Sequence record: MN850574.1
DNA: 64,000 bases
Strand: one strand, 5' to 3'
Source: Escherichia phage kaaroe
The position numbers and the translations under genes were made by a program. The notes under the pieces were generated by a model. The model was not told where the DNA came from, did no database searches, and saw only the letters and a list, made by a program, of their open reading frames with translations. The first letter of the stretch is position 1. Every line of letters starts with the position of its first letter. Shown piece by piece: positions 2,271-49,409 of the stretch.

Positions 2271-3082
2271 TGAAGAAAGCATTAGGTTTAATTCCCTATA
2301 CTGGCAATAAGGAAAAGTTATTGCCGGGTGTTAGTAAGTATTTCCCTAAGCACTATAACCGCTTTGTTGATGCCTTTTGTGGCGGCTTGAGCGTGTCTCT
2401 GTACGTAGAAGGGGATGTGCTGGCTAATGACTATGATCACCGCTTAATTGAAGCGTACAAAGCGATTGACGAGTGTCCTGATCCGGTTTCTACGATCAAG
2501 CGGATTATTGCCGAGAATGATTTGTCTCGTGATGATAAAGATGCTTACATGGCATTCCGTAAGAAGTATAATGAGAATCCAGATCCGCTATCTCTGTTTG
2601 TTCTGATTCAGCACAGTTTTAGCAACATTAACCGTCATAACAGGAAGGGCGAATTTAATGCTAATTTTGGTCGCCGGACTTTTAACGAAAACGCGGTAGA
2701 GCGTGTCCTGAATTTTAAGGAAGAAAACAAAGACGGTCGAATCAGTTTTACGTCTGGTCGTTATGACGAGATCGAGATCTTGCCAGGTGATTTCGTTTAT
2801 TTGGACCCGCCGTACCTTATCACTTCTGCGGAATATAATAAGTTCTGGAGTGACGAGGAAGAGATTAAATTCTATCAGTGGGTAGAATCTATTATGGCGC
2901 GTGGTTTTCAGTTTGGTATAAGTAATGTCACGCATCATAAGGGAAAGGCAAATGATCATCTTCTTGACTTTATCAAGCGGAATGATTTAAACTGCGTCTT
3001 GTTGAATAAGACCTATTGCCTAGATCGTTCAGGTGGCAAGTCTTCTGATACGCAAGAAGTTTATGTAACTAACGTAGATTGA
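2270..3082 (+). CDS. dam: DNA adenine methyltransferase Dam
   Basis: N-terminal YTGNKxKLLP..FVDxFCGGLSVSL and DPPY motif; colinear with recalled T4 Dam. Confidence 0.85.
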   Translation: MKKALGLIPYTGNKEKLLPGVSKYFPKHYNRFVDAFCGGLSVSLYVEGDVLANDYDHRLIEAYKAIDECPDPVSTIKRIIAENDLSRDDKDAYMAFRKKYNENPDPLSLFVLIQHSFSNINRHNRKGEFNANFGRRTFNENAVERVLNFKEENKDGRISFTSGRYDEIEILPGDFVYLDPPYLITSAEYNKFWSDEEEIKFYQWVESIMARGFQFGISNVTHHKGKANDHLLDFIKRNDLNCVLLNKTYCLDRSGGKSSDTQEVYVTNVD

Positions 3083-3090
3083 GGTATAAC

Positions 3091-3372
3091 ATGGTAGAAA
3101 TTTTTGGTTTTGAAGGTTACAACTGTAAGTATTGCCAGAATGCAAAGCGCCTTTGTGAAGCGCGTAAGATCCCTTACATCTACATTCCGGTTAATGATGG
3201 TGTGGACGAAAACGGTCGCCCGGTAAAGATTGATTCTATCATTGCCGATATTCAGGATCGCGCAGGGGTAGAAGTTATTGCCACCATGCCGCAGATTTTC
3301 TATGATGGTGATTATATCGGTGGCTTTGATGAGTTCCGATCCTTTGTAGTCAAAAACAAGATTAATGGTTAA
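3091..3372 (+). CDS. nrdC: thioredoxin/glutaredoxin-like protein NrdC
   Basis: CKYC redox motif, MPQIFYDGDYIGGFDEF tail similar to recalled T4 NrdC; ATG 3091 after GAGG. Confidence 0.7.
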   Translation: MVEIFGFEGYNCKYCQNAKRLCEARKIPYIYIPVNDGVDENGRPVKIDSIIADIQDRAGVEVIATMPQIFYDGDYIGGFDEFRSFVVKNKING

Positions 3373-3396
3373 ATACCTTCTTTGGAGGGTGAATTT

Positions 3397-3870
3397 ATGT
3401 TACTGACTGCTAAGAGTGCTAAAGAGTACAAACAAGAACTATTCGAAAAACAGGGGGGCATTTGCCCCCTTTGTCAATTGCCACTTTTTGAGGATATGAG
3501 CAAAAACCATCTTGACCACGACCACGATCTAGATGGGAAAGGGCAAGGCCGCGTAAGGGGATTGCTTCATTCGTGTTGCAACCGCCTAGAAGGATCGTTG
3601 ACCGGAGACTTTAAACGGTTTGGTGTTGGTGCTTTAGGTGCTGATTTCGTTGTTTGGGCTACAAACTATGTTAATTACATCAAAGGAGACTACACCAACA
3701 ATCATTTACATCCTCAATATGCTGTTGATAAAGTAAAACGATTTTCACGCTTGACACGCGCGGAGATGGTTGATATTATGGACGCAGAAGGTTTCGATTA
3801 CTGCGACGCTGATACAAGAGAAGAGATCACGAAGAAGTATAAGAAACAATTTATACAAAGATTAAGATAG
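3397..3870 (+). CDS. 49: endonuclease VII (Holliday junction resolvase) gp49
   Basis: MLLTAK..CPLCQ..HLDHDH..RGLLHSCCN matches recalled T4 gp49 zinc-binding/H-N-H region. Confidence 0.85.
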   Translation: MLLTAKSAKEYKQELFEKQGGICPLCQLPLFEDMSKNHLDHDHDLDGKGQGRVRGLLHSCCNRLEGSLTGDFKRFGVGALGADFVVWATNYVNYIKGDYTNNHLHPQYAVDKVKRFSRLTRAEMVDIMDAEGFDYCDADTREEITKKYKKQFIQRLR

Positions 3871-3873
3871 TAG

Positions 3874-3908
3874 TTGACAATAAGAAATGGGAGTAGTAAA
3901 ATACTCCC
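3874..3908 (+). promoter_or_regulatory. early promoter with GGGAGTA/TACTCCC hairpin (PeSL-like)
   Basis: TTGACA 3874-3879, 17-nt spacer, TAAAAT 3897-3902; arms GGGAGTAG 3889-3896 and TACTCCC 3902-3908. Confidence 0.6.
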
Positions 3909-3933
3909 ATCTAATCAAGAAGGAGAATCAACA

Positions 3934-4206
3934 ATGCGTAAGATGTTTAAATCCGGTGTTGCCTATGTTTTTAAATCTGAGCAAGCACATAAAGACTTCT
4001 TAGATGATGAATACGAGGGGGTGAAAGATACCTACGAAGTCATCAAGAATGGGTTTACTGTTCTTAAAGTGTCACCTGTTGGTTATGTAAGTGAAATCTC
4101 GGTTGATGGGAAAACATACACCGCTAAAGACTTTGATCCGCGTTGGGAATTTATGCTGCTTCCGTGTGAGCGCATTCTGTTCCGTGCTGTTCAATTAGTG
4201 AAATGA
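3934..4206 (+). CDS. hypothetical protein, paralog family A member 1
   Basis: AAGGAG RBS; GF(T/K)VLKV..G.V..I.VDG..YT..DF module shared with next two genes. Confidence 0.5.
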   Translation: MRKMFKSGVAYVFKSEQAHKDFLDDEYEGVKDTYEVIKNGFTVLKVSPVGYVSEISVDGKTYTAKDFDPRWEFMLLPCERILFRAVQLVK

Positions 4207-4220
4207 TAGAGGATTATATT

Positions 4221-4787
4221 ATGGTACAGAAAACGTATAAATTGTATCCGGCTAAGTCTTCAAATGATGCTGTTTTTGAACGAGGTCGTTATTACACTTT
4301 CCGTAATGCTGAGTCCGCAGAGGAATTTGTTAAACGCTACCCACAACATAACAAGTTCCTGTATGGTGTGCTTCACAGGGGCTTTAAAGTTCTTACGGTT
4401 AATGTTATGGGTAAAGTGTATTTGGTAGAAACTCATGATTATGAGGGTGCATCAATCATGATTGATGCAAGCGAGCGCAAATACTTTAAACGCATCACTA
4501 AAAAGCAGTTTGAAGAAATGAAACCAGTTAAGAAAGAAGAATCTCTGGAAGATCTGATTAACTTGTTTGGTAAAGTTCGCTCTATCTCCTTTGCGATTGA
4601 AGATGACATTACCGACAATAAAATCTTTATCAAGAACGCGGAAGACCTGAAAGAGTTCCTTATTGAAAATAGATCTCGGCTGGAAACCTTTCTTGAAAGT
4701 GAAATTATTCGACATGATACCTACGCTAAATTCAGCGCCGATAAAGTAGCTGAACTGAAAGAGATCCAAAAGTCATTTAACGCTTGA
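4221..4787 (+). CDS. hypothetical protein, paralog family A member 2
   Basis: Shares GFKVLTV and ERKYFKRITKKQFEEM modules with 4844..6022. Confidence 0.55.
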   Translation: MVQKTYKLYPAKSSNDAVFERGRYYTFRNAESAEEFVKRYPQHNKFLYGVLHRGFKVLTVNVMGKVYLVETHDYEGASIMIDASERKYFKRITKKQFEEMKPVKKEESLEDLINLFGKVRSISFAIEDDITDNKIFIKNAEDLKEFLIENRSRLETFLESEIIRHDTYAKFSADKVAELKEIQKSFNA

Positions 4788-4818
4788 CATGATGAAACGG
4801 GAGTAGTAAGATACTCCC
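4784..4818 (+). promoter_or_regulatory. early promoter with GGGAGTA/TACTCCC hairpin (PeSL-like)
   Basis: TTGACA 4784-4789, 17-nt spacer, TAAGAT 4807-4812, arms GGGAGTAG/TACTCCC. Confidence 0.6.
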
Positions 4819-4843
4819 ATCTAAACAACGAGAGGATTATATT

Positions 4844-6022
4844 ATGGCTAAATTCTTTGAAGGTCATTACTATGCATTCCGTGAAGGCGGTAAAGATGAG
4901 TTTCTAGACTTTTCTCGCTATTCAATTATTCTGACCGATGCTTCGCGCCGTGGTCATATTCGGGTTGCTGAAATCGTAGAAAAGGGCTTTAAAGTATTAG
5001 AAAAAGATGACCACGGTCATGTTATTACTATTGAAGCTGGAGATGTAGTTTATTCCGCTGAGGATATCGTTTATTATTGGTCTACTATGATTATGCACAA
5101 TGAGCGCAAATACTTTAAACGTATCTCAAAAGAGGCATACGAAGCGATGAACAAGAAAGAGGATGCAATGCCGACTTACTTTGAAAAAGGTAAATGTTAT
5201 TCGTTTACCCCAGAAGGTTTGCAAGAATTTAAGCGATTCTGGGGAGAGCATGACCCAGAGCACAAAGAAGCCATGAAACTTGTTGATTTTGTCGAATATG
5301 GCTTTTTAGTTGAAGAAGAATTGCACGGATCAGCTACCATGATCACCGCGAAAGGTGAAACCGTCAAGGCGGACCGTTTTTGTGATCAATGGAATTGCTT
5401 GTTTGACGGTAGCGAATTTGAATACTTCGCGGAAATCACGAAACAACAATTTCATTCTATGCAAGCGGATGGTCAGAGATTTAAAGTAGGTGAACGCTAC
5501 AAACCAAATCAGCATAATTTGCCATATTGGTTTACCGCTGAAACTGTATCAAGTCATGTTGTTGAAATTGTTCAAAAGCTGGGACAAGGATTTAAGGTAA
5601 CTAAAGTAGATGATTATGGAAGTGTTGACGCGGTTGAAATTGATGGTGTAGAATATACACCGAAATCTTTCGGTCTTTGCTGGTATCACTTGATCAGCAA
5701 TGATGAACGTTATAACTTTGTTGAACTGCCATCTGAACCGGAAGAAGCACTAGAAGATCATGATCATCTGTCTGAACTGGTTAAGCTGTTTGGTGATCTG
5801 CCGGATGGTGTAGGCGTGGCGGTAATGGGTGAAGGTGCTGTTATCCGAAACCTGAAAGACTTTAAAAAGTTCTTGATTGACATGCTGCCTAAACTTGATG
5901 ATAATCTAGATACAGATATTCAGAATCGCAAAGAAATTGTTAAAGAGACTGAAAAAGAGATCGAAGAGATTCGAGCAATTCGCCAGAAGGTGAAAGCAGT
6001 AAAGAAAAAAGTTAGTGCTTGA
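4844..6022 (+). CDS. hypothetical protein, paralog family A member 3 (internally repeated)
   Basis: Contains GFKVLEK, GFKVTKV, ERKYFKRISKEAYEAM and EFEYFAEITKQQFHSM repeats of the family A module. Confidence 0.6.
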   Translation: MAKFFEGHYYAFREGGKDEFLDFSRYSIILTDASRRGHIRVAEIVEKGFKVLEKDDHGHVITIEAGDVVYSAEDIVYYWSTMIMHNERKYFKRISKEAYEAMNKKEDAMPTYFEKGKCYSFTPEGLQEFKRFWGEHDPEHKEAMKLVDFVEYGFLVEEELHGSATMITAKGETVKADRFCDQWNCLFDGSEFEYFAEITKQQFHSMQADGQRFKVGERYKPNQHNLPYWFTAETVSSHVVEIVQKLGQGFKVTKVDDYGSVDAVEIDGVEYTPKSFGLCWYHLISNDERYNFVELPSEPEEALEDHDHLSELVKLFGDLPDGVGVAVMGEGAVIRNLKDFKKFLIDMLPKLDDNLDTDIQNRKEIVKETEKEIEEIRAIRQKVKAVKKKVSA

Positions 6023-6053
6023 CATGCGAAGGGAGTATGCTATAATACTCCCA
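6019..6053 (+). promoter_or_regulatory. early promoter with GGGAGTA/TACTCCC hairpin (PeSL-like)
   Basis: TTGACA 6019-6024, TATAAT 6041-6046, arms GGGAGTA 6031-6037 and TACTCCC 6047-6053. Confidence 0.6.
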
Positions 6054-6076
6054 CTTAACAACGAGAGGATTATATT

Positions 6077-6571
6077 ATGTGGGTACAAGATGTTTGGTAT
6101 ACTGTAACTAAAGAAAACCTTGACGCATTCAGCGACCAATCTTGCGCTAATAGCTCAATTGCTGGTATACTTACTGATGTGTTTGGTGGTGTAGATAAAA
6201 TTCGTTTTAAAGTTGTTGTTAGTTCGCTGGGTCAGGTGAAAGATCTTTACACCGAAGATAAAGACCTTGATCTTGAACTTCGTCTTCGTATTGATAATGC
6301 AAGTCTAGGTTATTGGTTTGAAGATAACGAATATGAATACTTCACGCCAGCAATTAAAGTTTTTGCGACTAAACTGGAAGCTGTACTGAATCTCCGACCA
6401 ATTAATGTTGACGGATACATTATCAAAAATATTCAGGATTGGGAGTTGTATCTAGATCAGGTTATCCGAAATAGTAAGCAGGAAGCCGCTAATAAGAAGC
6501 GACAAGAGATTAAACAGCTTAAAGCTGAACTAGAAGCTAAAGAAAAAGAATTAGCAGAACTGGTAAAATAA
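6077..6571 (+). CDS. hypothetical protein with C-terminal coiled coil
   Basis: GAGAGGATTATATTATG start context; C-terminal heptad-like KQLKAELEAKEKELAELVK. Confidence 0.5.
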   Translation: MWVQDVWYTVTKENLDAFSDQSCANSSIAGILTDVFGGVDKIRFKVVVSSLGQVKDLYTEDKDLDLELRLRIDNASLGYWFEDNEYEYFTPAIKVFATKLEAVLNLRPINVDGYIIKNIQDWELYLDQVIRNSKQEAANKKRQEIKQLKAELEAKEKELAELVK

Positions 6572-6581
6572 CTATCAACGA

Positions 6582-6603
6582 GCGGGAGAAATCCCGCTTT
6601 TTC
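6582..6603 (+). terminator. intrinsic terminator
   Basis: GCGGGAgaaaTCCCGC followed by TTTTTC. Confidence 0.6.
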
Positions 6604-6615
6604 ATAGGTGATACA

Positions 6616-8478
6616 ATGGAAAAACTAATCAAAGACATTACAGAGATCGCAACGGGTAAAGAAAACGAAGTAAGCAAAGAGAACGCGAACAAAGACGCGC
6701 GAACATTCCCGACACGTCGAGATCTGATTGCTGGTGCTGTGTCTAAACAGATTGCTAAAACCGTGTTACCTGAGCACATCTATAAAGCGCATGTAGACGG
6801 TGACATTCATTATCATGATATGGATTATGCACCCGCTATGCCGTTTACTAACTGCTGTCTTGTTAATCTCAAAGACATGTTAGAGAATGGTTTTAAATTG
6901 GGTAGCGCACAAATCGAAAGTCCGAAATCAATCGGCGTTGCTTGTGCTGTAACCGCTCAAATTATCGCACAGGTGGCAAGTCATCAATATGGCGGGACCA
7001 CAATCGCAAACATCGATCAGGTGTTAGCACCGTATGTTGAGAAAACATATCATAAACACCTTGCTGATGCCGAAACCTACGGAATCAAAGCTGATACTCT
7101 CTATGCACAAGAGAAGACAGAAAAAGAAACTTTAGACGGGTATCAAGCGTTGGAATATGAAATCAACACTTTGTTCTCCACCAACGGTCAAACGCCTTTT
7201 GTGACTTTAACCTTTGGTATGGGTACTAGCTGGGAAGAAAAACTGATTCAGAAAGCGATCCTGAACGTTCGAACTAAAGGTTTAGGTAAAGATGGTATCA
7301 CTCCGGTGTTTCCTAAGCTGGTGATGTTCTTAGAAGAAGGATTAAACCTTAAACCGGAAGATCCGAACTACGACATTAAGCAACTTGCATTGGAATGTTC
7401 TAGTAAGCGTCTTTACCCTGATTATATCTCTGCGAAGAATAACCGTAGTATCACCGGATCTAGTGTTCCGGTTAGCCCGATGGGTTGTCGTAGCTTCCTG
7501 GGTGTGTGGCATAATGAGAAAGGCGAAGAAGTATTAGACGGACGTAATAACTTGGGTGTTGTGACCCTGAATCTTCCGCGTATTGCCCTTATTGCCGCGC
7601 GTCGTGCTGGTAAAGCGTCTGTAATGCGCAGAATTGAGCTATTCGAACAAGAGCTAGCCAATCGTATGCCTATTTGCTTTGATGCGCTCATGAGTCGCGT
7701 AGACGCTTTAAAAGGGGCTAAAGCCAATGTTGCTCCGGTGCTGTATACCGAAGGTGCGTTTTTCCGTATTCATCAAAACGATGAAATTTTGGAAGTGTTG
7801 AAAGATGGTCGCGCTAGTATCTCTCTTGGATATATTGGTTTACATGAGGTATTGAGCGTCCTGTTTGGTGTTCATCCGTTTGATTCGGAAGATGCGCAGC
7901 GATACGGTAAACATATTCTTAAGATCTTGCGTCATTATACTGAAAAATGGAAGGACGAAACCGGACTTGGGTTTAGTCTTTACGGTACTCCAGCCGAGAG
8001 CCTTTGCTATCGATTTAATCGACTGGACCGAGAGCAATTTGGTATTGTTAAGGGTGCTACCGATAAAGACTGGTACACCAACTCATTCCACCTTGACGTA
8101 GACCGGAAAGTCACTCCATTTGAGAAAATTGACTTTGAGAAAGATTATCACTGGCTGGCGTCCGGTGGCATGATCTCTTATGTTGAGTTCCCAGACATGA
8201 AAAACAACCTGAAAGGTCTTGAAACTGTAGTAGACTATGCAATGGATAAATTGCACTACTTCGGTGTTAATACTCCTTCTGATGTATGTCATGTATGCGG
8301 ATCTACTAAGGAAATGAGAGCGACCGAGTCTGGTTTTGTTTGTCCTGATTGCGGTAATGACAATCTGGACAAGATGAATGTTATCCGTCGCGTTAGTGGA
8401 TATCTTGGATCTGTTGATCTGCGTCCATTCAACCACGGGAAACACTCCGAGATGGTAAACCGCGTTAAGCACATGTAA
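6616..8478 (+). CDS. nrdD: anaerobic ribonucleoside-triphosphate reductase NrdD, uninterrupted
   Basis: Near full-length colinearity with recalled T4 NrdD (NANKDARTFPTRRDL..., C-terminal CHVCGST...CPDCG, glycyl-radical region). Confidence 0.95.
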   Translation: MEKLIKDITEIATGKENEVSKENANKDARTFPTRRDLIAGAVSKQIAKTVLPEHIYKAHVDGDIHYHDMDYAPAMPFTNCCLVNLKDMLENGFKLGSAQIESPKSIGVACAVTAQIIAQVASHQYGGTTIANIDQVLAPYVEKTYHKHLADAETYGIKADTLYAQEKTEKETLDGYQALEYEINTLFSTNGQTPFVTLTFGMGTSWEEKLIQKAILNVRTKGLGKDGITPVFPKLVMFLEEGLNLKPEDPNYDIKQLALECSSKRLYPDYISAKNNRSITGSSVPVSPMGCRSFLGVWHNEKGEEVLDGRNNLGVVTLNLPRIALIAARRAGKASVMRRIELFEQELANRMPICFDALMSRVDALKGAKANVAPVLYTEGAFFRIHQNDEILEVLKDGRASISLGYIGLHEVLSVLFGVHPFDSEDAQRYGKHILKILRHYTEKWKDETGLGFSLYGTPAESLCYRFNRLDREQFGIVKGATDKDWYTNSFHLDVDRKVTPFEKIDFEKDYHWLASGGMISYVEFPDMKNNLKGLETVVDYAMDKLHYFGVNTPSDVCHVCGSTKEMRATESGFVCPDCGNDNLDKMNVIRRVSGYLGSVDLRPFNHGKHSEMVNRVKHM

Positions 8479-21908: not shown

Positions 21909-21920
21909 TATAATGTTTGT

Positions 21921-21941
21921 GGGGAGTATAAAATACTCCCC
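21921..21941 (+). other. GGGGAGTA/TACTCCCC hairpin with TATAAAAT in loop region
   Basis: 8-bp stem with 5-nt loop between genes 45 and 44; same arm sequence as the PeSL-like promoters. Confidence 0.45.
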
Positions 21942-21974
21942 GTTTTAATGATGTAATTTGTGAGAGGTGATTAT

Positions 21975-36229: not shown

Positions 36230-36472
36230 ATGGTTGTTATTAATAATGTGGCTAATGTAATACATCTACAATCAATTGTCGCGTGGAACCGTCAAAAGAT
36301 TCATTGTGACTATGCACAACATGTAATGAATTTTAACAACAAAGTACGCGCATACATGGCAACGGAACGACTGTTAACCGATAATTACGGTAACGGGATT
36401 ATTGATTGTAGCGGTTTCATTCTGGATAAAAACGATCTGGAGTTGTTCCGGCATATCGCGGAGGATATTTAA
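36230..36472 (+). CDS. hypothetical protein
   Basis: ORF between dda and dexA. Confidence 0.4.
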   Translation: MVVINNVANVIHLQSIVAWNRQKIHCDYAQHVMNFNNKVRAYMATERLLTDNYGNGIIDCSGFILDKNDLELFRHIAEDI

Positions 36473-37416: not shown

Positions 37417-39240
37417 ATGAGTGAGTTTCGCATTTTATCTGATCGTGAACATGTCCTTAAGCGTGCAGGAATGTATATAGGATCAACAACTTACGAAGAA
37501 CATCAACGTTTCCTGTTCGGTAAATGGACAAAAATTTCATACGTTCCTGGACTGGTTAAAATCATTGATGAGATCATCGACAACTCTGTAGACGAGGCGA
37601 TCCGCACTAACTTTGAATTTGCCAATGTGATTAGCGTCGATATCCAAAACAATATTGTTACTGTAACAGACAATGGTCGCGGTATTCCTCAACATATGGT
37701 TACTACCCCAGAGGGTACGCAGATTCCGCAACCTGTCGCCGCATGGACACGAACAAAAGCAGGGTCTAACTTTGATGATACCAATCGATTAACGCAAGGG
37801 ATGAACGGTGTGGGGTCGTCGTTGTCAAATTTCTTTAGCGATTGGTTTACTGGTGTGACCTGTGACGGCGAAACAGAAATGACCGTTCAATGTACAAACG
37901 GTGCTGAAAATATCACATGGTCATCGAAACCATCAAAATTGAAGGGAACAAAGGTTACATTTTGCCCAGACTTCGACCACTTCGAAGGTTATATGATGGG
38001 CAACTCTGTTTTAGATATTGTTCATGATCGTCTGCAATCATTGAGCGTAATATTTCCTAAGATCACGTTTAAGTTTAATGGTAAACGTATTGTTAGTAAG
38101 TTCAAGGATTATGCTAAACTATACAATGATGATCCGTTTGTCATTGAAGATAAAAACTTTTCACTTGCCCTAGTTCCTGCGGTCGAGGGAGAAGGTTTTA
38201 AATCAGTATCCTTTGCTAATGGTCTGTTTACCAAAAACGGGGGAACACACGTTGATTATGTGACAGATGATCTTTGTGAAGAGATTGTAAAACGAATCAA
38301 GAAAGAATATAAGGTTGATGTTACTAAAGCTGCGGTTAAGTCTGGATTGACCTGTATTCTTATTGTTCGTGAATTGCCTAACCTTCGTTTTGATTCACAG
38401 ACAAAAGAACGATTGACTAATCCAACTGGTGATATCAAGCGTCATATTGATCTTGATTTTAAAAAGCTGGCTAAAGTCATTGCTAAGAAAGAAAACATTA
38501 TCATGCCTATTATTGCTGTAGTCCTGGCACGCAAAGAGGCAGCAGATAAAGCGGCAGCGACTAAGGCAGCAAAGGCAGCGAAACGGGCTAAGGTGGCAAA
38601 ACACGTTAAAGCTAACCTTATTGGAACTGACGCAGAAACTACCCTGTTTTTGACGGAAGGTGATTCCGCGATCAACTATCTGATCTCTGTACGTGATCAA
38701 GATTTACATGGAGGTTTCCCGTTGCGAGGCAAAACTCTTACAACGTGGGAACAACCGGAGGCAAAGATCGTTAAGAACGCCGAAATTTTTAACATCATGG
38801 CGATCACTGGCTTGCAATTTGGTGTTGATGCATTGGAAGTTATGCAATACAAAAATATTGCGATTATGACCGACGCTGATACTGACGGGATCGGGTCTAT
38901 TAAACCTAGTCTGATCTCTTTCTTTGCACGTTGGCCTGAATTGTTCGAAGATGGACGAATCCGGTTTATCAAAACACCTATTATCATTGCGGAACCAAAG
39001 AAAGGTGATGATGTTCGATGGTATTATGACCTAGAAGATTTCGAGAACGACCGAGATAATATCAAAGGTTACAACATTCGATATATCAAAGGTTTAGCAT
39101 CGCTCACAGAATCAGACTATCATCGCGTGATCAACGATCCTGTCATGGAGATCATCACGTTACCGGAAAACTATAAAGAGCTATTCGATTTGCTCTATAG
39201 TGAAGATGCAGATCAGCGCAAAATTTGGATGCAATCATAA
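37417..39240 (+). CDS. 39: topoisomerase II large (GyrB-like ATPase) subunit gp39, unsplit
   Basis: RPGMYIGS-like N-terminus, GHKL ATPase motifs (DNGRGIP), TOPRIM region; continuous 607-aa ORF. Confidence 0.9.
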   Translation: MSEFRILSDREHVLKRAGMYIGSTTYEEHQRFLFGKWTKISYVPGLVKIIDEIIDNSVDEAIRTNFEFANVISVDIQNNIVTVTDNGRGIPQHMVTTPEGTQIPQPVAAWTRTKAGSNFDDTNRLTQGMNGVGSSLSNFFSDWFTGVTCDGETEMTVQCTNGAENITWSSKPSKLKGTKVTFCPDFDHFEGYMMGNSVLDIVHDRLQSLSVIFPKITFKFNGKRIVSKFKDYAKLYNDDPFVIEDKNFSLALVPAVEGEGFKSVSFANGLFTKNGGTHVDYVTDDLCEEIVKRIKKEYKVDVTKAAVKSGLTCILIVRELPNLRFDSQTKERLTNPTGDIKRHIDLDFKKLAKVIAKKENIIMPIIAVVLARKEAADKAAATKAAKAAKRAKVAKHVKANLIGTDAETTLFLTEGDSAINYLISVRDQDLHGGFPLRGKTLTTWEQPEAKIVKNAEIFNIMAITGLQFGVDALEVMQYKNIAIMTDADTDGIGSIKPSLISFFARWPELFEDGRIRFIKTPIIIAEPKKGDDVRWYYDLEDFENDRDNIKGYNIRYIKGLASLTESDYHRVINDPVMEIITLPENYKELFDLLYSEDADQRKIWMQS

Positions 39241-46044: not shown

Positions 46045-46242
46045 ATGAAAGAATATCCAGAAGGCGGTTATATTGCATTTGTGTACAACAATAAAAAGAT
46101 TGTGCCAATGGTCGTTGAGACTATGGAAGAAGCCAACCGGATCACTATTGAATCTCTGAGCAAATTAGCAGAGATGACAAACACACCAGAACACAGAGCA
46201 AAGATCGACAGCTTGATGAAAGAATTTTCAGAGAGGAAATAA
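46045..46242 (+). CDS. hypothetical protein
   Basis: Small ORF, ATG 46045 just after gene 52 stop. Confidence 0.4.
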   Translation: MKEYPEGGYIAFVYNNKKIVPMVVETMEEANRITIESLSKLAEMTNTPEHRAKIDSLMKEFSERK

Positions 46243-46245
46243 ATT

Positions 46246-46641
46246 ATGACTGAACGACGCATTACTTCAAATGGTTTGGGTACTCATCATGCCTGGATGG
46301 TTGACCCAGACAAAAATCCTTATAAACTTTACGATACAACGATTAAACCGTGGAATAATGGCGTATGGAAAACACCACCCACAACAGCACCTATTATGAC
46401 TGATCAGAAACCGTTTAGCCCGATGGCGGAACCAGTACAGATTAAGCCGTTACCTTACCAGATAACGACGAATAGCATCACCAACAAACAAGAAAATGAT
46501 ATTGATATGATCTACGAGATGATTAAACTTTGGCGTGATGTTTATCTGGGTGTTCTCTGCAACACAGATAAAAGTGCACATGCGGCAGCGGTACTGGCAT
46601 CTCATGCAGTAGACGAAGCCAAAAAGAAATTTAGTAAGTAA
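46246..46641 (+). CDS. hypothetical protein
   Basis: GAGAGG RBS. Confidence 0.5.
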   Translation: MTERRITSNGLGTHHAWMVDPDKNPYKLYDTTIKPWNNGVWKTPPTTAPIMTDQKPFSPMAEPVQIKPLPYQITTNSITNKQENDIDMIYEMIKLWRDVYLGVLCNTDKSAHAAAVLASHAVDEAKKKFSK

Positions 46642-46651
46642 CTGATTATTA

Positions 46652-46680
46652 AGCCGATCCTTGTGGTCGGCTTTTTTATT
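46652..46680 (+). terminator. intrinsic terminator
   Basis: AGCCGATCcttgtGGTCGGCT followed by TTTTTTATTTT. Confidence 0.7.
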
Positions 46681-46690
46681 TTAAAAGTTG

Positions 46691-46719
46691 TTGACTTCCA
46701 TAATCCATCATTGCATAAT
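46691..46719 (+). promoter_or_regulatory. sigma70-type early promoter with conserved leader
   Basis: TTGACT 46691-46696, 17-nt spacer, CATAAT 46714-46719; leader ATAATACACACATACCAAAC..AAGGAGAATCAA. Confidence 0.55.
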
Positions 46720-46750
46720 ACACACATACCAAACAAAAGGAGAATCAAAG

Positions 46751-47023
46751 ATGAACAACGAAAACAGCAAAGTGTTGGCAATTGCAGATAAAGTAGGTTA
46801 CTGGAAATGCTGGGATGATATGGAGAAATTAGGCGGTCGCTATCTCGATAACTTAGAGTTGCATTATTGCCAAGCGCGTAATGCAGAAGTTGCGGGAGTA
46901 GCAATCGAAGATATTCCGTCTAAAGTCTTCGGATTCTCTAAAGATGATACTCTAGAATATGTTTTCAAGGCTGTTATGGATCAAGCATGGGAAGACGCAG
47001 AGACACGCGCTCTTGACTGGTGA
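46751..47023 (+). CDS. hypothetical protein
   Basis: AAGGAGAATCAAAG then ATG 46751. Confidence 0.45.
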   Translation: MNNENSKVLAIADKVGYWKCWDDMEKLGGRYLDNLELHYCQARNAEVAGVAIEDIPSKVFGFSKDDTLEYVFKAVMDQAWEDAETRALDW

Positions 47024-47027
47024 TAAT

Positions 47028-47198
47028 ATGAACTGGTATAAAATTTGGAAAAATCAGGTGGAGGCTTATCTAGGGTATAAGCCAACCGACGAAGAATTAC
47101 TTGAAGCAATGTACGAAGACGGCTTAAATCCGAAAGTAGCCGCGCAAGAATACGCGGAATGGGTGAAGGTCGAAGATAACCTAAAGGGGAAACTATGA
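47028..47198 (+). CDS. hypothetical small protein
   Basis: ATG 47028; 56 aa. Confidence 0.35.
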   Translation: MNWYKIWKNQVEAYLGYKPTDEELLEAMYEDGLNPKVAAQEYAEWVKVEDNLKGKL

Positions 47199-47395
47199 AG
47201 AAAATGATTGCGATTGCTTTGCTGGCTAGTGCATGTACGGTAAATGCTAATACCGCAGCGATGGTCGCGGCTGTAACTGCTGCAAATGCGTCTGTTATGG
47301 CATCGCAAGAGGCAGCACGCCAGCAAGCACAACAAGAAGCCCAGCGAAAAGCACATGAGGCGACGAAAAATTTCACGAAAATAACAAAAAACTAG
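47195..47395 (+). CDS. small secreted or lipoprotein-like protein
   Basis: N-terminal signal-like MKKMIAIALLASAC with possible lipobox Cys; Ala/Gln-rich mature part. Confidence 0.4.
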   Translation: MKKMIAIALLASACTVNANTAAMVAAVTAANASVMASQEAARQQAQQEAQRKAHEATKNFTKITKN

Positions 47396-47430
47396 TTGAC
47401 GCCAAAGGTCATCGGTAGTATTATACTCCC
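47396..47430 (+). promoter_or_regulatory. sigma70-type early promoter with degenerate hairpin
   Basis: TTGACG 47396-47401, 17-nt spacer, TATTAT 47419-47424; GGTAGTA..TACTCCC arms. Confidence 0.5.
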
Positions 47431-47458
47431 ATACCGAAACGAACTGGAGGAAATAAAA

Positions 47459-47701
47459 ATGGTTAAAGTTAATGTTATCGAAGTTGCACTGTACGACGCT
47501 GGGATCTTCCTGAATGAAAAAGAAGCTGCCGTCCTCGACGAACTGAAAACTGTTTTTGTTCCTGTAGTAGAAGACGTAGAAGCAATCAAAATCGCTTCTC
47601 GTAAACTGTCCCGCGAAGCATTCGACATGATTGATCCGGTTTTCAAAGTTATGCACGAATGCGCGGTTATGATGACCGAAGAAGAAGCGAAAAATTTCTA
47701 A
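47459..47701 (+). CDS. hypothetical protein
   Basis: GGAGG RBS, ATG 47459. Confidence 0.45.
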   Translation: MVKVNVIEVALYDAGIFLNEKEAAVLDELKTVFVPVVEDVEAIKIASRKLSREAFDMIDPVFKVMHECAVMMTEEEAKNF

Positions 47702-47708
47702 AAACTAG

Positions 47709-47743
47709 TTGACGTAAAGATAAGGGAGTAGTAACATACTCCC
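47709..47743 (+). promoter_or_regulatory. early promoter with GGGAGTA/TACTCCC hairpin (PeSL-like)
   Basis: TTGACG 47709-47714, 17-nt spacer, TAACAT 47732-47737; arms GGGAGTAG 47724-47731 and TACTCCC 47737-47743. Confidence 0.55.
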
Positions 47744-47766
47744 ATACCAAACGAAAGGAGAATCAC

Positions 47767-47976
47767 ATGAAATCTATCGAGCAAGTAGTAACAGAGTTTA
47801 TGAGCTACGAAGGAAACCGCATCTTTGGACGTTCTCAAGTTCGCGAGATCGTAGAAGAAGTTGCTGGAGAGTTTGCGGAATCTGGTCACATTATCACGCA
47901 AGAACGTAAAGAAGAAGCAGTAAACCAGATCATGGCTATACAGAAAATGCGTATTAATGCACGAGCGGGGGCTTAA
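47767..47976 (+). CDS. hypothetical protein
   Basis: AAGGAGAATCACATG start context. Confidence 0.45.
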   Translation: MKSIEQVVTEFMSYEGNRIFGRSQVREIVEEVAGEFAESGHIITQERKEEAVNQIMAIQKMRINARAGA

Positions 47977-47977
47977 A

Positions 47978-48277
47978 ATGAATTTTACCGATAAAGTTTT
48001 TGAAATTAGTCGCACTACTTCAATTAAAAATCTTAGGGCGGCTGCATTTATGGTTGATAAAGGGTTTAATATGGCATCGTCTGACGGTGTACCGTACTTT
48101 GCACCAACTTTCGTTGGCTGGATGACTGATCGTAAACGTGATTACACTAAAGCATATCCGCATATGGTACTTAGTAAAATTATCACTAAAGTGTATCCAC
48201 ATATGGTACTTAATGACGTTATCACGGACCACGATCACTTTACAAACTTTATTGTTTCCGGTGAATGGCGAAAATAA
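47978..48277 (+). CDS. hypothetical protein with internal 13-aa tandem repeat
   Basis: ATG 47978; YPHMVLSKIITKV / YPHMVLNDVITDH from a 39-bp direct DNA repeat. Confidence 0.45.
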   Translation: MNFTDKVFEISRTTSIKNLRAAAFMVDKGFNMASSDGVPYFAPTFVGWMTDRKRDYTKAYPHMVLSKIITKVYPHMVLNDVITDHDHFTNFIVSGEWRK

Positions 48278-48288
48278 TTTAAAACTAG

Positions 48289-48323
48289 TTGACACCGGAT
48301 TAAGGGAGTAGTAACATACTCCC
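48289..48323 (+). promoter_or_regulatory. early promoter with GGGAGTA/TACTCCC hairpin (PeSL-like)
   Basis: TTGACA 48289-48294, 17-nt spacer, TAACAT 48312-48317; arms identical to the 47709 copy. Confidence 0.55.
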
Positions 48324-48351
48324 ATCAAGACAAAACACTGAGGAATATATT

Positions 48352-49110
48352 ATGAAAAACATTATCGCTGCTATCGTTCTTTCTGCTACTGCTTTCGGTG
48401 CTAACGCTGCGTCCTTTGATTGCGCTAAAGCTACTACCAAATCAGAGAAGTTTATTTGTGCTAATGAGTCTATCTCCGCACTGGACTCTAAACTTCATGA
48501 GGTGTATGTTAAGGCTGTTAAGATTGATCCGTCTCTGAAACAAGAGCAACGAAACTGGAATAAAACTGTTCGTGATACAATGATCAATATAGGGCAGATT
48601 CAGCCACTGGAGGCTGTATATAACGCTCAAATCCAAAACTTGATGAATGTATTACCTAAAGAAGAAACCGCGTCAGAAAGCGATTCAGAGACTTCTGCGA
48701 AGGTTGAAGAAGAACAACCGAAACAGGAAGCAAAAGTGGTAGAAGAACCGAAGGTCGAAACTTTTACCTATCAATGTACCGTTCGTTATGAGTGGAGTAT
48801 GAAAGATGGAATTTCCACAAAAATTAAAGAGGCTCCACTGTATGCAAAATATGGAAACCAGCCAGGGGATCTTAAAGTAACCATTAAAAATGGGAAGATG
48901 GTTGATTTTGTATACACTGATGAATACAACGTACACAAAGCAAACGTACAAGAAACCGTTATGACTAAAGGCGGGTTTTATAAGAATGTTGGCAAGAAAG
49001 ATCTATATGAATACTCCGTTTTCGAACCAAACGACGGAACTATTCGATTTGAAAAACGTCATCCTACATTCGGTGGAGCAATTGATGTAGATCAATACGT
49101 TTGCAAGTAA
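48352..49110 (+). CDS. secreted protein with LprI/DUF1311-like N-terminal domain
   Basis: Signal peptide MKNIIAAIVLSATAFGANA; CAKATT..E.FIC..ISALDSKL..VY pattern typical of DUF1311; acidic linker then C-terminal domain with second Cys pair. Confidence 0.5.
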   Translation: MKNIIAAIVLSATAFGANAASFDCAKATTKSEKFICANESISALDSKLHEVYVKAVKIDPSLKQEQRNWNKTVRDTMINIGQIQPLEAVYNAQIQNLMNVLPKEETASESDSETSAKVEEEQPKQEAKVVEEPKVETFTYQCTVRYEWSMKDGISTKIKEAPLYAKYGNQPGDLKVTIKNGKMVDFVYTDEYNVHKANVQETVMTKGGFYKNVGKKDLYEYSVFEPNDGTIRFEKRHPTFGGAIDVDQYVCK

Positions 49111-49121
49111 GAGGTTAAATT

Positions 49122-49409
49122 ATGCAATTCAATAACATGAAGATTACAAAAGATTGGTGGAAGGCGATGCAAGATACTCCAGAAACCAAATTAAGCGAGA
49201 CAACAACCACAATACAAGTTGATTACGAAGATCCGAAAGACATATACAGAGAGATTTTAATCAGAGAGCTTATAAAAGCTGGAAACTATCAAACACCAGA
49301 TGGCCTTATTGACATGATGGTTAAAGGTCTGTATAGTGGTAAAAATCCAGATATTTTACCGTGGTACGAGGGATATTTTAAAACATATCGTGACCACAAC
49401 CGAAAATAA
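49122..49409 (+). CDS. hypothetical protein
   Basis: ORF with AGAGG RBS. Confidence 0.45.
   Translation: MQFNNMKITKDWWKAMQDTPETKLSETTTTIQVDYEDPKDIYREILIRELIKAGNYQTPDGLIDMMVKGLYSGKNPDILPWYEGYFKTYRDHNRK

Follow-up and report, generated by a model that had tools for sequence, protein, structure and literature searches.

Probable promoter-early stem-loops, near-identical in sequence, within a paralogous gene array of Escherichia phage kaaroe, a Krischvirus

Four paralogous genes and three promoter-hairpin cassettes

The window analysed here is the entire 64,000-nucleotide stretch of Escherichia phage kaaroe (sequence record MN850574.1), which sequence comparison identifies as a Krischvirus (99.8% to vB_EcoM_PTE-Eco09, 97.8% to RB49). 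Positions 3934-6571 hold an array of four distantly paralogous open reading frames (ORFs), g1 to g4, and promoter-hairpin cassettes, which we refer to as c1, c2 and c3, stand ahead of the first, third and fourth of these only. The features of the locus are as follows:

3874-3933, + strand: c1, probable promoter-early stem-loop (PeSL) between gene 49 and g1, from sequence, fold, promoter scan, RB49 Pe:39144 and GEC-3S
3934-4206, + strand: g1, 90 aa, with one copy of the ~90-aa domain common to the array; RB49p060 orthologue
4221-4787, + strand: g2, 188-aa paralog; RB49p059, labelled 'goF mRNA metabolism modulator'
4784-4843, + strand: c2, probable PeSL between g2 and g3, from sequence, fold, promoter scan, RB49 Pe:38234 and TransTerm 38186-38205
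4844-6022, + strand: g3, 392 aa, labelled frd.2 or 'goF'; three N-domain repeats and a C-terminal domain
6019-6076, + strand: c3, probable PeSL between g3 and g4, from sequence, fold, promoter scan, RB49 Pe:36999 and GEC-3S
6077-6571, + strand: g4, 164 aa, a weak paralog; phrog_3710 is common to g3 and g4
6582-6603, + strand: intrinsic terminator, AGCGGGA-GAAA-TCCCGCT then TTTT, closing the array before nrdD

A Pfam search with the four array proteins returned no family above the cut-off, only sub-threshold noise. The original prediction had placed a cassette before each gene of the array, which holds for g1, g3 and g4 but not for the fourth member, g2. The latter starts 14 nt after the g1 stop behind a ribosome-binding region alone and is presumably co-transcribed with g1; with 27% variable columns, it varies more than any other array gene. 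Among relatives, the 5' third of g4 occurs as two alleles whose left boundary lies at c3. The terminator downstream of g4 folds at -17 kcal/mol (z -4.0), is annotated in GEC-3S and is the TransTerm site 36406-36422 of RB49 (PMC1524935).

Direct reading of the three cassettes confirmed the architecture first proposed at 3874, 4784 and 6019, namely TTGACA, a spacer of 16-17 nt and a -10 hexamer inside a GGGAGTA-TACTCCC hairpin. Their parts, with predicted transcription starts, are:

c1 promoter, + strand: TTGACA 3874-3879, 17-nt spacer, TAAAAT 3897-3902
c1 stem, + strand: GGGAGTA 3889-3895 / TACTCCC 3902-3908, loop 3896-3901
c1 leader, + strand: predicted +1 at A 3909, SD GGAG 3922-3925, ATG 3934
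c2 promoter, + strand: TTGACA 4784-4789, 17-nt spacer, TAAGAT 4807-4812
c2 stem, + strand: 4799-4805 / 4812-4818
c2 leader, + strand: predicted +1 at A 4819, SD GAGG 4832-4835, ATG 4844
c3 promoter, + strand: TTGACA 6019-6024, 16-nt spacer, TATAAT 6041-6046, with an extended -10 (TGcTATAAT, 6038-6046)
c3 stem, + strand: GGGAGTAT 6031-6038 / ATACTCCC 6045-6052
c3 leader, + strand: predicted +1 at A 6053, SD 6065-6068, ATG 6077

In each cassette the -10 sits in the 6-nt loop and runs one base into the 3' arm. The c1 stem is extendable to 9 bp (3887-3895 / 3902-3910), and the GGGAGTA and TACTCCC half-sites are separated by 6 nt in c1 and c2 and by 8 nt in c3. The gene 49 stop lies 3 nt upstream of the c1 -35, the TGA stops of g2 (4785-4787) and g3 (6020-6022) fall within the -35 hexamers of c2 and c3, and the ATG of each downstream gene is about 25-26 nt 3' of the predicted start. 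An AT-rich tract upstream of the -35 is among the published traits of PeSLs (PMC2839356). It is clear only at c1, with 72% AT; c2 and c3 have 58% AT there, equal to the window mean of 59%, and the region in question is part of the preceding gene.

Promoter consensus, folding and the published PeSL class

A consensus promoter scan scored c1 at 11/12, c2 at 10/12 and c3, with an extended TG, at 12/12; the promoter role of the cassettes is near certain and their start sites are predicted. Desplats and colleagues reportedly mapped the 5' ends of RB49 early transcripts in 2002. The RB49 early consensus favours C at -3 to -1, in agreement with mapped 5' ends (PMC1524935), and the CCC followed by A at c1-c3 matches this consensus. 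Folding confirmed the proposed stems both as RNA (-11.9 to -13.8 kcal/mol, z -3.0 to -3.7) and as DNA (-5.4 to -7.5 kcal/mol, 0/200 shuffles as good), and within a read-through RNA of 200 nt the stem pairs form with a probability of 0.98-1.0. Rfam covariance models gave no match at E <= 1 across 3300-6800. Extrusion of a cruciform on which endonuclease VII, the product of a gene just upstream, could act was also considered and is unlikely given stems of 7-9 bp, 6-nt loops and DNA folds of -5 to -7.5 kcal/mol.

Given that part of the hairpin coincides with promoter positions, the stems might be functionless by-products of promoter consensus and base composition. The 3' arm does contain two parts of the RB49 early consensus, CCC at -3 to -1 and T at -7 (PMC1524935), and a relaxed promoter scan found 13 sites against 11.1 in shuffles. 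However, the spacer, where no consensus is required, holds a 5' arm that is nevertheless perfectly complementary; GGGAGTA-N3-14-TACTCCC has six matches in the window against 0.00 expected (100 shuffles); fold z-scores run from -3 to -5; and the stems are conserved above the third-codon positions of the neighbouring gene. Chance is refuted statistically, and we give it virtually no credence.

Conservation was assessed in a sample drawn mainly from GenBank phage records, to which IMG/VR contributed three Krischvirus contigs (stem pattern and g3). Across 8 genomes the cassettes vary in 7/178 columns, compared to 12.2% overall, with 1/42 variable columns in the stems and 0/36 in the hexamers. Across 13 genomes the stems vary in 4/42 columns, compared to 19.5% in g3 and 33% at g3 third codon positions, and two of these four changes are independent A-to-G substitutions, after which the + strand RNA can still pair as U.G. 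The c2 stem of an ECD7-like contig has two broken pairs, indicating that the hairpin is not indispensable.

Judged by their match to the published description in PMC2839356, c1, c2 and c3 are very probably PeSLs of Krischvirus, the RB49-like T4-type coliphages, a reading that unites promoter, hairpin and recombination. The comparison with PeSLs of RB49-type phages that accompanied the first observation is supported, as the window is a Krischvirus and its elements fit the descriptions in PMC2839356 and PMC4122927. PeSLs were defined in the RB49 and phi1 phage group by Arbiol et al. 2010, who list 51 of them in RB49, as a near-perfect sigma-70 promoter plus a stem-loop, the stem overlapping the -10 in one of five subclasses, placed after the stop of one gene and before the SD/ATG of the next, ahead of genes of unknown function, with nrdD one of the few genes of known function tied to them (PMC2839356). 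Comeau et al. 2014 give their form as TTGACA-N17-TATAAT with a G(n)-loop-C(n) stem (PMC4122927). The cassettes described here share with the RB49/phi1 elements (PMC2839356) the genus, the TTGACA-N17-TATAAT promoter, a G(n)/C(n) stem over the -10, the order of stop, element and SD/ATG, downstream genes of unknown function, and indels with chimeric junction cassettes. The class of the three elements is thus already known; they are ordinary members of it and conceptually nothing new.

Comparison with RB49 revealed that the orthologues of all three promoters had been listed as early as 2006. Nolan et al. 2006 recorded RB49 early promoters and TransTerm terminators separately, in Additional files 3 and 6, and the composite repeated cassette went unrecognised (PMC1524935). 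Their early promoters Pe:39144, Pe:38234 and Pe:36999 are the orthologues of c1, c2 and c3, respectively; the '1 bp del' noted for Pe:36999 corresponds to the 16-nt spacer of c3, and the hairpin of the c2 orthologue is the 7-bp TransTerm terminator 38186-38205, 'frd.2<--ORF059c' (PMC1524935). The GEC-3S record has promoters annotated at c1 and c3.

Copies of the stem and exchange between cassettes

The same stem, or its core, occurs at four further places in the window:

21920-21942, + strand: hairpin at 21922 that shares the stem core, GGGGAGTA-TAAAA-TACTCCCC then GTTTT
47396-47458, + strand: degenerate subfamily member, GGTAGTA...TACTCCC, with a broken stem
47709-47766, + strand: PeSL ahead of an unrelated 69-aa ORF; its stem, GGGAGTA-GTAACA-TACTCCC, is that of c1-c3 and keeps their register
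48289-48351, + strand: PeSL with the same stem ahead of an unrelated 252-aa ORF

The GGGAGTA stems at 47724 and 48304 stand in the same promoter register as those of c1-c3, and the 252-aa ORF has a signal-peptide-like N-terminus. The hairpin at 21920-21942, between the sliding-clamp and clamp-loader genes, is terminator-like and outside the promoter register.

Because the four array genes are paralogs, the cassettes might simply be duplicated 5' ends carried along by plain tandem gene duplication rather than independent units. In keeping with this, c2 and c3 share the leader AACAACGAGAGGATTATATTATG as well as GCTTGACATG, which takes in the Ala-stop codons at the ends of homologous proteins. 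Nonetheless, the stems are 100% identical while the paralogous proteins are only ~30% identical and their coding DNA is unalignable, g2 has no cassette, and the same promoter-hairpin head, at 47709 and 48289, stands before genes that are unrelated. The ribosome-binding GAGGATTATATTATG region occurs in 13 copies, compared to 0.25 expected; it is a consensus for translation initiation throughout the genome and no family-specific duplication. In the cassette alignment, c2 is a mosaic of a c1-like core and c3-like flanks, and identity among the three ends at the -35 and at the ATG. These boundaries, together with chimeric junctions in KFS-EC and ECD7, count against mere duplication of gene 5' ends that lack a cassette boundary of their own, and so do the disparity between stems and proteins and the recurrence of the head before unrelated genes; the initial interpretation is supported in this respect. 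Tandem duplication is therefore largely refuted, and we consider it barely credible.

Relatives provide examples of exchange between cassettes. KFS-EC, in a deletion known from a single genome assembly, lacks g1 and g2 (about 910 bp) and retains a single chimeric cassette with c1 on its 5' side and c2 on its 3' side, the crossover lying inside GGGAGTAGTAA. In ECD7, 46748-47735 is missing and a chimeric cassette marks the junction, and an IMG/VR contig carries an extra ORF and GGGAGTA cassette inserted at about 46727, so that two cassette-bounded indels fall at 46.7-47.7 kb. In JK32, the c2 leader has been converted to the c3 type. All four array genes are kept in 56/58 records, which indicates that shuffling at this locus is rare; hyperplastic PeSL regions are typically less stable. 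As far as genome sequences can reveal it, the comparison of relatives shows a role of the cassettes in recombination.

We also considered whether GGGAGTA...TACTCCC is a sequence-specific DNA operator, at which a dimeric phage protein sitting over the -10 and discriminator would shut off the promoters or target recombination. The exact sequence identity of five promoter-register copies goes beyond what pairing requires, the position of the palindrome would block RNA polymerase, and Arbiol et al. speculated on a stem-binding protein (PMC2839356); moreover, RB49-type phages have neither MotA nor middle promoters (PMC1524935), which makes some other regulation of early promoters conceivable. However, other promoters in the window bear unrelated stems in the same register, at 649 (ATGCGGTTAT/ATGACCGCAT), 39244 (AAGGGAGATTCTC/GGGAGTCTCCCTT) and 39613 (GGGGATAT/ATGTCCCC), from which it follows that structure rather than stem sequence is common to the PeSL promoters of the window. 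In addition, half-site spacing differs between c1/c2 and c3, the recurrent A to G variant breaks the DNA symmetry while keeping the RNA U.G pair, no candidate binding protein was identified, and copying or gene conversion, for which KFS-EC and JK32 give direct evidence, is the simpler account of stem identity. An operator is thus very improbable. The differing stems were compared descriptively, as MAFFT fails to bring c3, with its 8 nt between half-sites, and the 13-bp stem of 39244 into a common register; for PeSLs with different stems, column-by-column homology is not demonstrable.

Proposed mechanism and meaning

In the PeSL reading that we favour, each cassette would act as a near-consensus sigma-70 promoter for the unmodified host RNA polymerase right after infection, with transcription predicted to start at the A after CCC (3909, 4819 and 6053) and to yield a short, unstructured, A-rich leader with a strong ribosome-binding site for g1 (and with it g2), g3 and g4. 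With both stem arms 5' of the predicted start, the cassette's own transcript would be free of the hairpin, which would form solely in RNA reading through from the upstream gene, where it may attenuate transcription or protect the 3' end and so insulate each unit.

Efficient intrinsic termination by the GGGAGTA subfamily appears doubtful from the sequences downstream. The stems of c1, c2 and c3 are followed by ATCTAATCAA, ATCTAAACAA and ACTTAACAAC, respectively, with 2-3 T in the next 10 nt, and the U-tract directly after the stem that defines a canonical rho-independent terminator is absent at all three, which is what makes a terminator role doubtful there. A consensus scan likewise called no + strand terminator at c1, c2 or c3; the same scan also missed the clear terminator at 6582-6603. 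The lack of a U-tract sets this subfamily apart from other PeSLs, from which it otherwise has no essential difference. In the literature, strong in vivo promoter activity is on record for PeSLs 206/205 and 193/192 and termination by the stem was assayed for 211/210 only; the GGGAGTA subfamily is absent from these assayed elements (PMC2839356). Attenuation by the GGGAGTA stem and the start sites of c1-c3 are predictions, and promoter or terminator activity of other PeSLs, as well as mini-circles, are taken from the literature, while anatomy, folding potential, conservation above flanking genes and chimeric junctions in relatives come from our own analysis.

Exchange between one cassette and another would delete, insert or swap the intervening genes and leave one chimeric cassette behind. 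T4-type phages recombine on patches of <50 bp. Cassettes of ~60 nt that are nearly identical would therefore constitute portable homology. Extrachromosomal mini-circles arise from exchange between neighbouring PeSLs (PMC2839356), and the KFS-EC deletion is the reciprocal product that exchange of this type would leave.

Comparable linkers are known elsewhere. The PeSL-like elements of PST/T4 and nt-1/KVP40 (PMC4122927) are also promoter and stem-loop linkers flanking shuffled small genes, and similar composite linkers occur at the internal-protein loci of T-even phages (Repoila et al. 1994, cited in PMC2839356); these have other promoter consensus sequences (TTTACW..., TTGYVH...) and stems (AGNA/TCNT, A3-4G3/C3T3-4) and are analogues, not homologues, according to their authors (PMC2839356, PMC4122927). 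Lambdoid morons and integron cassettes are likewise single genes that carry their own expression signals. Integrons require an integrase and attC sites. PeSL exchange apparently proceeds by general homologous recombination (PMC2839356).

It is conceivable, if improbable, that the identical GGGAGTA/TACTCCC stem is more than a trace of recent copying and marks a sub-regulon read sequence-specifically by a phage factor. If so, it might be a DNA-binding protein, either one setting the time at which these early promoters shut off in a phage without MotA or one directing recombination to them; alternatively, it might bind or cleave RNA, with the GGAG-containing hairpin of read-through transcripts as its target. 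The existence of a stem subfamily without a U-tract also bears on the question of the hairpin's role at the RNA level.

For the phage group as a whole, PeSLs are one of few concrete mechanisms proposed for the shuffling of accessory genes in large lytic phages without integrases, as promoter-plus-hairpin linkers give each small gene its own expression signals along with a homology patch for recombination. The c1/c2 junction of KFS-EC, the ECD7 junction and the inserted ORF with its cassette are clean natural examples for the published model, and they support it from genomes that post-date 2010.

A four-gene array with three promoter hairpins

Database comparison of positions 3000-7000 gave 99.8% identity to Escherichia phage vB_EcoM_PTE-Eco09 and 97.8% to RB49, and all 58 of the 58 matching records were Krischvirus (RB49-like T4-type phages). 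The gene order in RB49 is dam, nrdC, 49 (endonuclease VII), RB49p060, p059, p058 (frd.2), p057 and nrdD.

Genes and promoter-hairpin cassettes in the window
3382-3870, gene 49 (endonuclease VII)
3874, cassette c1: TTGACA, 17-nt spacer, -10 TAAAAT
3934-4206, array gene g1
4221-4787, array gene g2
4784, cassette c2: TTGACA, 17-nt spacer, -10 TAAGAT
4844-6022, array gene g3
6019, cassette c3: TTGACA, 16-nt spacer, -10 TGcTATAAT
6077-6571, array gene g4
From 6616 (ATG at 6616), nrdD

The original prediction placed such a cassette before each gene of a three-gene array. All three cassettes lie at the positions claimed, each with its -10 inside a GGGAGTA/TACTCCC hairpin, but the array holds four genes, linked by common PHROG families (622, 5347 and 8944 in g1, g2 and g3; phrog_3710 in g3 and g4), and g2, which starts 14 nt past the g1 stop, is preceded by a ribosome-binding region only. 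Pairwise protein identity is about 26-33%. The array (3934-6571) is a distant paralog family based on a domain of about 90 amino acids, with one copy in g1, one copy plus a C-terminal domain in g2, and three N-terminal copies plus the C-terminal domain in g3; g4 is weakly related to the rest. Databases label g1-g4 'goF mRNA metabolism modulator / frd.2', and their proteins matched no Pfam family. A canonical terminator at 6582-6603 closes the array. The gene nrdD, among the few known-function genes associated with promoter-early stem-loops (PeSLs; PMC2839356), has no cassette of its own here and starts 13 nt past this strong intrinsic terminator.

Direct reading of the sequence shows the exact inverted repeat in c1, c2 and c3, with the -10 in a 6-nt loop and the 3' arm running from the final T of the -10 to position -1. 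The window holds six instances of the hairpin pattern against an expectation of 0.00, which statistically excludes a chance origin. Folding likewise bore out the proposed stems, as RNA (-11.9 to -13.8 kcal/mol, z -3.0 to -3.7) and as DNA (-5.4 to -7.5 kcal/mol, equalled in 0 of 200 shuffles). The TGA stops of g2 (4785-4787) and g3 (6020-6022) sit within the -35 hexamers (GCT-TGA-CA), so that coding sequence and promoter overlap; both proteins end in a C-terminal Ala.

Promoter and hairpin function

Promoter function of c1-c3 is near certain because the hexamers are near-perfect (consensus-match scores of 11/12, 10/12 and 12/12), the RB49 orthologues were predicted in 2006 to be early promoters (Pe:39144, Pe:38234 and Pe:36999; PMC1524935), and the GEC-3S annotation marks c1 and c3 as promoters. 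The RB49 early-promoter model agrees with mapped RB49 5' ends and favours C at -3 to -1 (PMC1524935), as found in the window cassettes. In each cassette the predicted transcription start is an A (3909, 4819 and 6053); each cassette's own mRNA would thus lack the 5' arm and could form no hairpin, so that the hairpin could act only in upstream read-through RNA or single-stranded DNA. In a 200-nt read-through RNA context, stem pair probability is 0.98-1.0. One other PeSL stem terminates on par with rrnB T1 (Arbiol et al., PMC2839356), and TransTerm called the RB49 orthologue of c2 a terminator in 2006 (PMC1524935). No U-tract follows the stem of c1, c2 or c3, and a consensus terminator scan did not call these stems. 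The odds that they act in attenuation or 3'-end protection are about even.

Alignment of eight genomes over 3382-6630 shows variation in 12.2% of all columns (11-27% in g1-g4, 3.9% in gene 49). Within the cassettes, just 7 of 178 columns are variable, with 1 of 42 in the stems and 0 of 36 in the hexamers. The 27% belongs to g2, unusually variable between close relatives. When 13 genomes are compared, variation is seen in 4 of the 42 stem columns, versus 19.5% of columns across g3 and 33% at its third-codon positions. Two of the four changes are the same A-to-G at the first base past the -10, arisen independently in c1 (phi1, GEC-3S, Whisky and an ECD7-like contig) and c3 (one metagenomic contig), and it preserves a U.G pair in the + strand RNA. 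The other two fall in a single contig, where the 3' arm of c2 is TACTACA and two pairs are lost; the stem is thus under constraint without being indispensable. In c1 the A-to-G creates an in-frame ATG (phi1 4421-4726, Whisky 602-907), and the g1 orthologue is annotated 33 nt longer in phi1 and Whisky, with its start inside the promoter hairpin, probably an annotation artefact.

Further intergenic TTGACA promoters in the window carry a hairpin in the same register around the -10, with unrelated stems.

Same-register promoters with unrelated stems
649, ATGCGGTTAT/ATGACCGCAT
39244, AAGGGAGATTCTC/GGGAGTCTCCCTT
39613, GGGGATAT/ATGTCCCC

The hairpin around the -10 is therefore a general design, of which the GGGAGTA stem is one subfamily. 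These unrelated stems also weigh against reading the GGGAGTA palindrome as a sequence-specific DNA operator, which is further disfavoured by the different half-site spacing in c3 and by the recurrent variant, which retains the RNA wobble pair only. A hairpin at 21920-21942 (GGGGAGTA-TAAAA-TACTCCCC, then GTTTT), between the sliding-clamp and clamp-loader genes, has the subfamily's stem core outside the promoter register and is annotated as a terminator in several records; directly 5' of it, inside the clamp gene end, lies a promoter-like site (TTGACT-17-TATAAT, 21886).

Copying and exchange of cassettes

The promoter-hairpin head also occurs in the same register (as GGGAGTA-GTAACA-TACTCCC) at 47709 and 48289, each time in front of an unrelated ORF, and a degenerate copy lies at 47396. 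Because no universal stem is needed, yet five copies are identical beside genes that are 30% identical or unrelated, the sequences point to recent copying or gene conversion rather than ancient co-duplication. The proposal that stem identity reflects cassette copying thus holds up, whereas stems that are 100% identical before proteins of about 30% identity, the copies before unrelated genes and the chimeric junctions all contradict a plain duplication of gene 5' ends. Allowing at most two mismatches, the window has 13 copies of the ribosome-binding region GAGGATTATATTATG (15 nt), against 0.25 expected (700, 4209, 4832, 6065, 28028, 40325, 49421 and six near-matches); this region is a phage-wide translation-initiation consensus and no sign of duplicated gene 5' ends. 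A second leader type, GGAGAATCA (seven occurrences against 0.63 expected), bears a putative likeness to the T4 RegB cleavage consensus GGAGRAYARAA (PMC3014915); RB49 encodes a RegB homologue.

The four-gene array is retained in all genomes but one, KFS-EC, in which gene 49 is directly followed by g3. Its sole intergenic cassette agrees with c1 in the 5' part (TAGTAGTTGACAGCATGAAAT, the RB49-type c1 spacer) and with c2 in the 3' part (TAAGATACTCCCAT.TAAACAACGAGAGGATT.TATTATGGCTAAATTC), which places the crossover within the common GGGAGTAGTAA; the missing segment, about 910 bp, is as long as the interval from c1 to c2. In JK32 the c2 leader is the c3 version (CCCACTTAACAACGAG), most simply explained by conversion, and the 5' third of g4 exists as two alleles with c3 as their left boundary.

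The second cluster of the GGGAGTA stem family sits in a true hyperplastic region: coverage of 46200-49200 reaches 80% or more in just 28 of the 58 Krischvirus records. There PTE-Eco09 is just 96.4% identical at 90% coverage and FL37 and FL15 are closest (98.6%); since the nearest relative changes between 3-7 kb and 46-49 kb, the genome is a mosaic. ECD7 lacks window positions 46748-47735 and carries a chimeric cassette joining the 46691 promoter head to the leader of the 47709 cassette, and a metagenomic contig has an additional 69-aa ORF and GGGAGTA cassette where the window has one promoter. ORFs 47195-47395 and 47459-47701 are missing from RB49 and JSE; in place of ORF 47957-48277, RB49, ECD7 and JSE have a different small gene with its own GGGGATC-stem cassette. 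Breakpoints in 46200-49300 coincide with PeSLs at 46691, 47396, 47709 and 48289. The chimeric junctions directly support a role of the cassettes in recombination.

Relation to published PeSLs

The proposed PeSL identity agrees with the sequence-level features that c1-c3 share with the PeSLs of RB49 and phi1, phages of the same genus (PMC2839356), 51 of which are reported in RB49 (PMC2839356). PMC4122927 condenses these features to TTGACA-N17-TATAAT with a G(n)-loop-C(n) stem; the exception among them is the upstream AT-rich tract, which is clear for c1 only. The feature represented by c1-c3 is thus already known, and KFS-EC, ECD7 and the metagenomic contig supply junctions that are fresh, tidy instances of the published mechanism.
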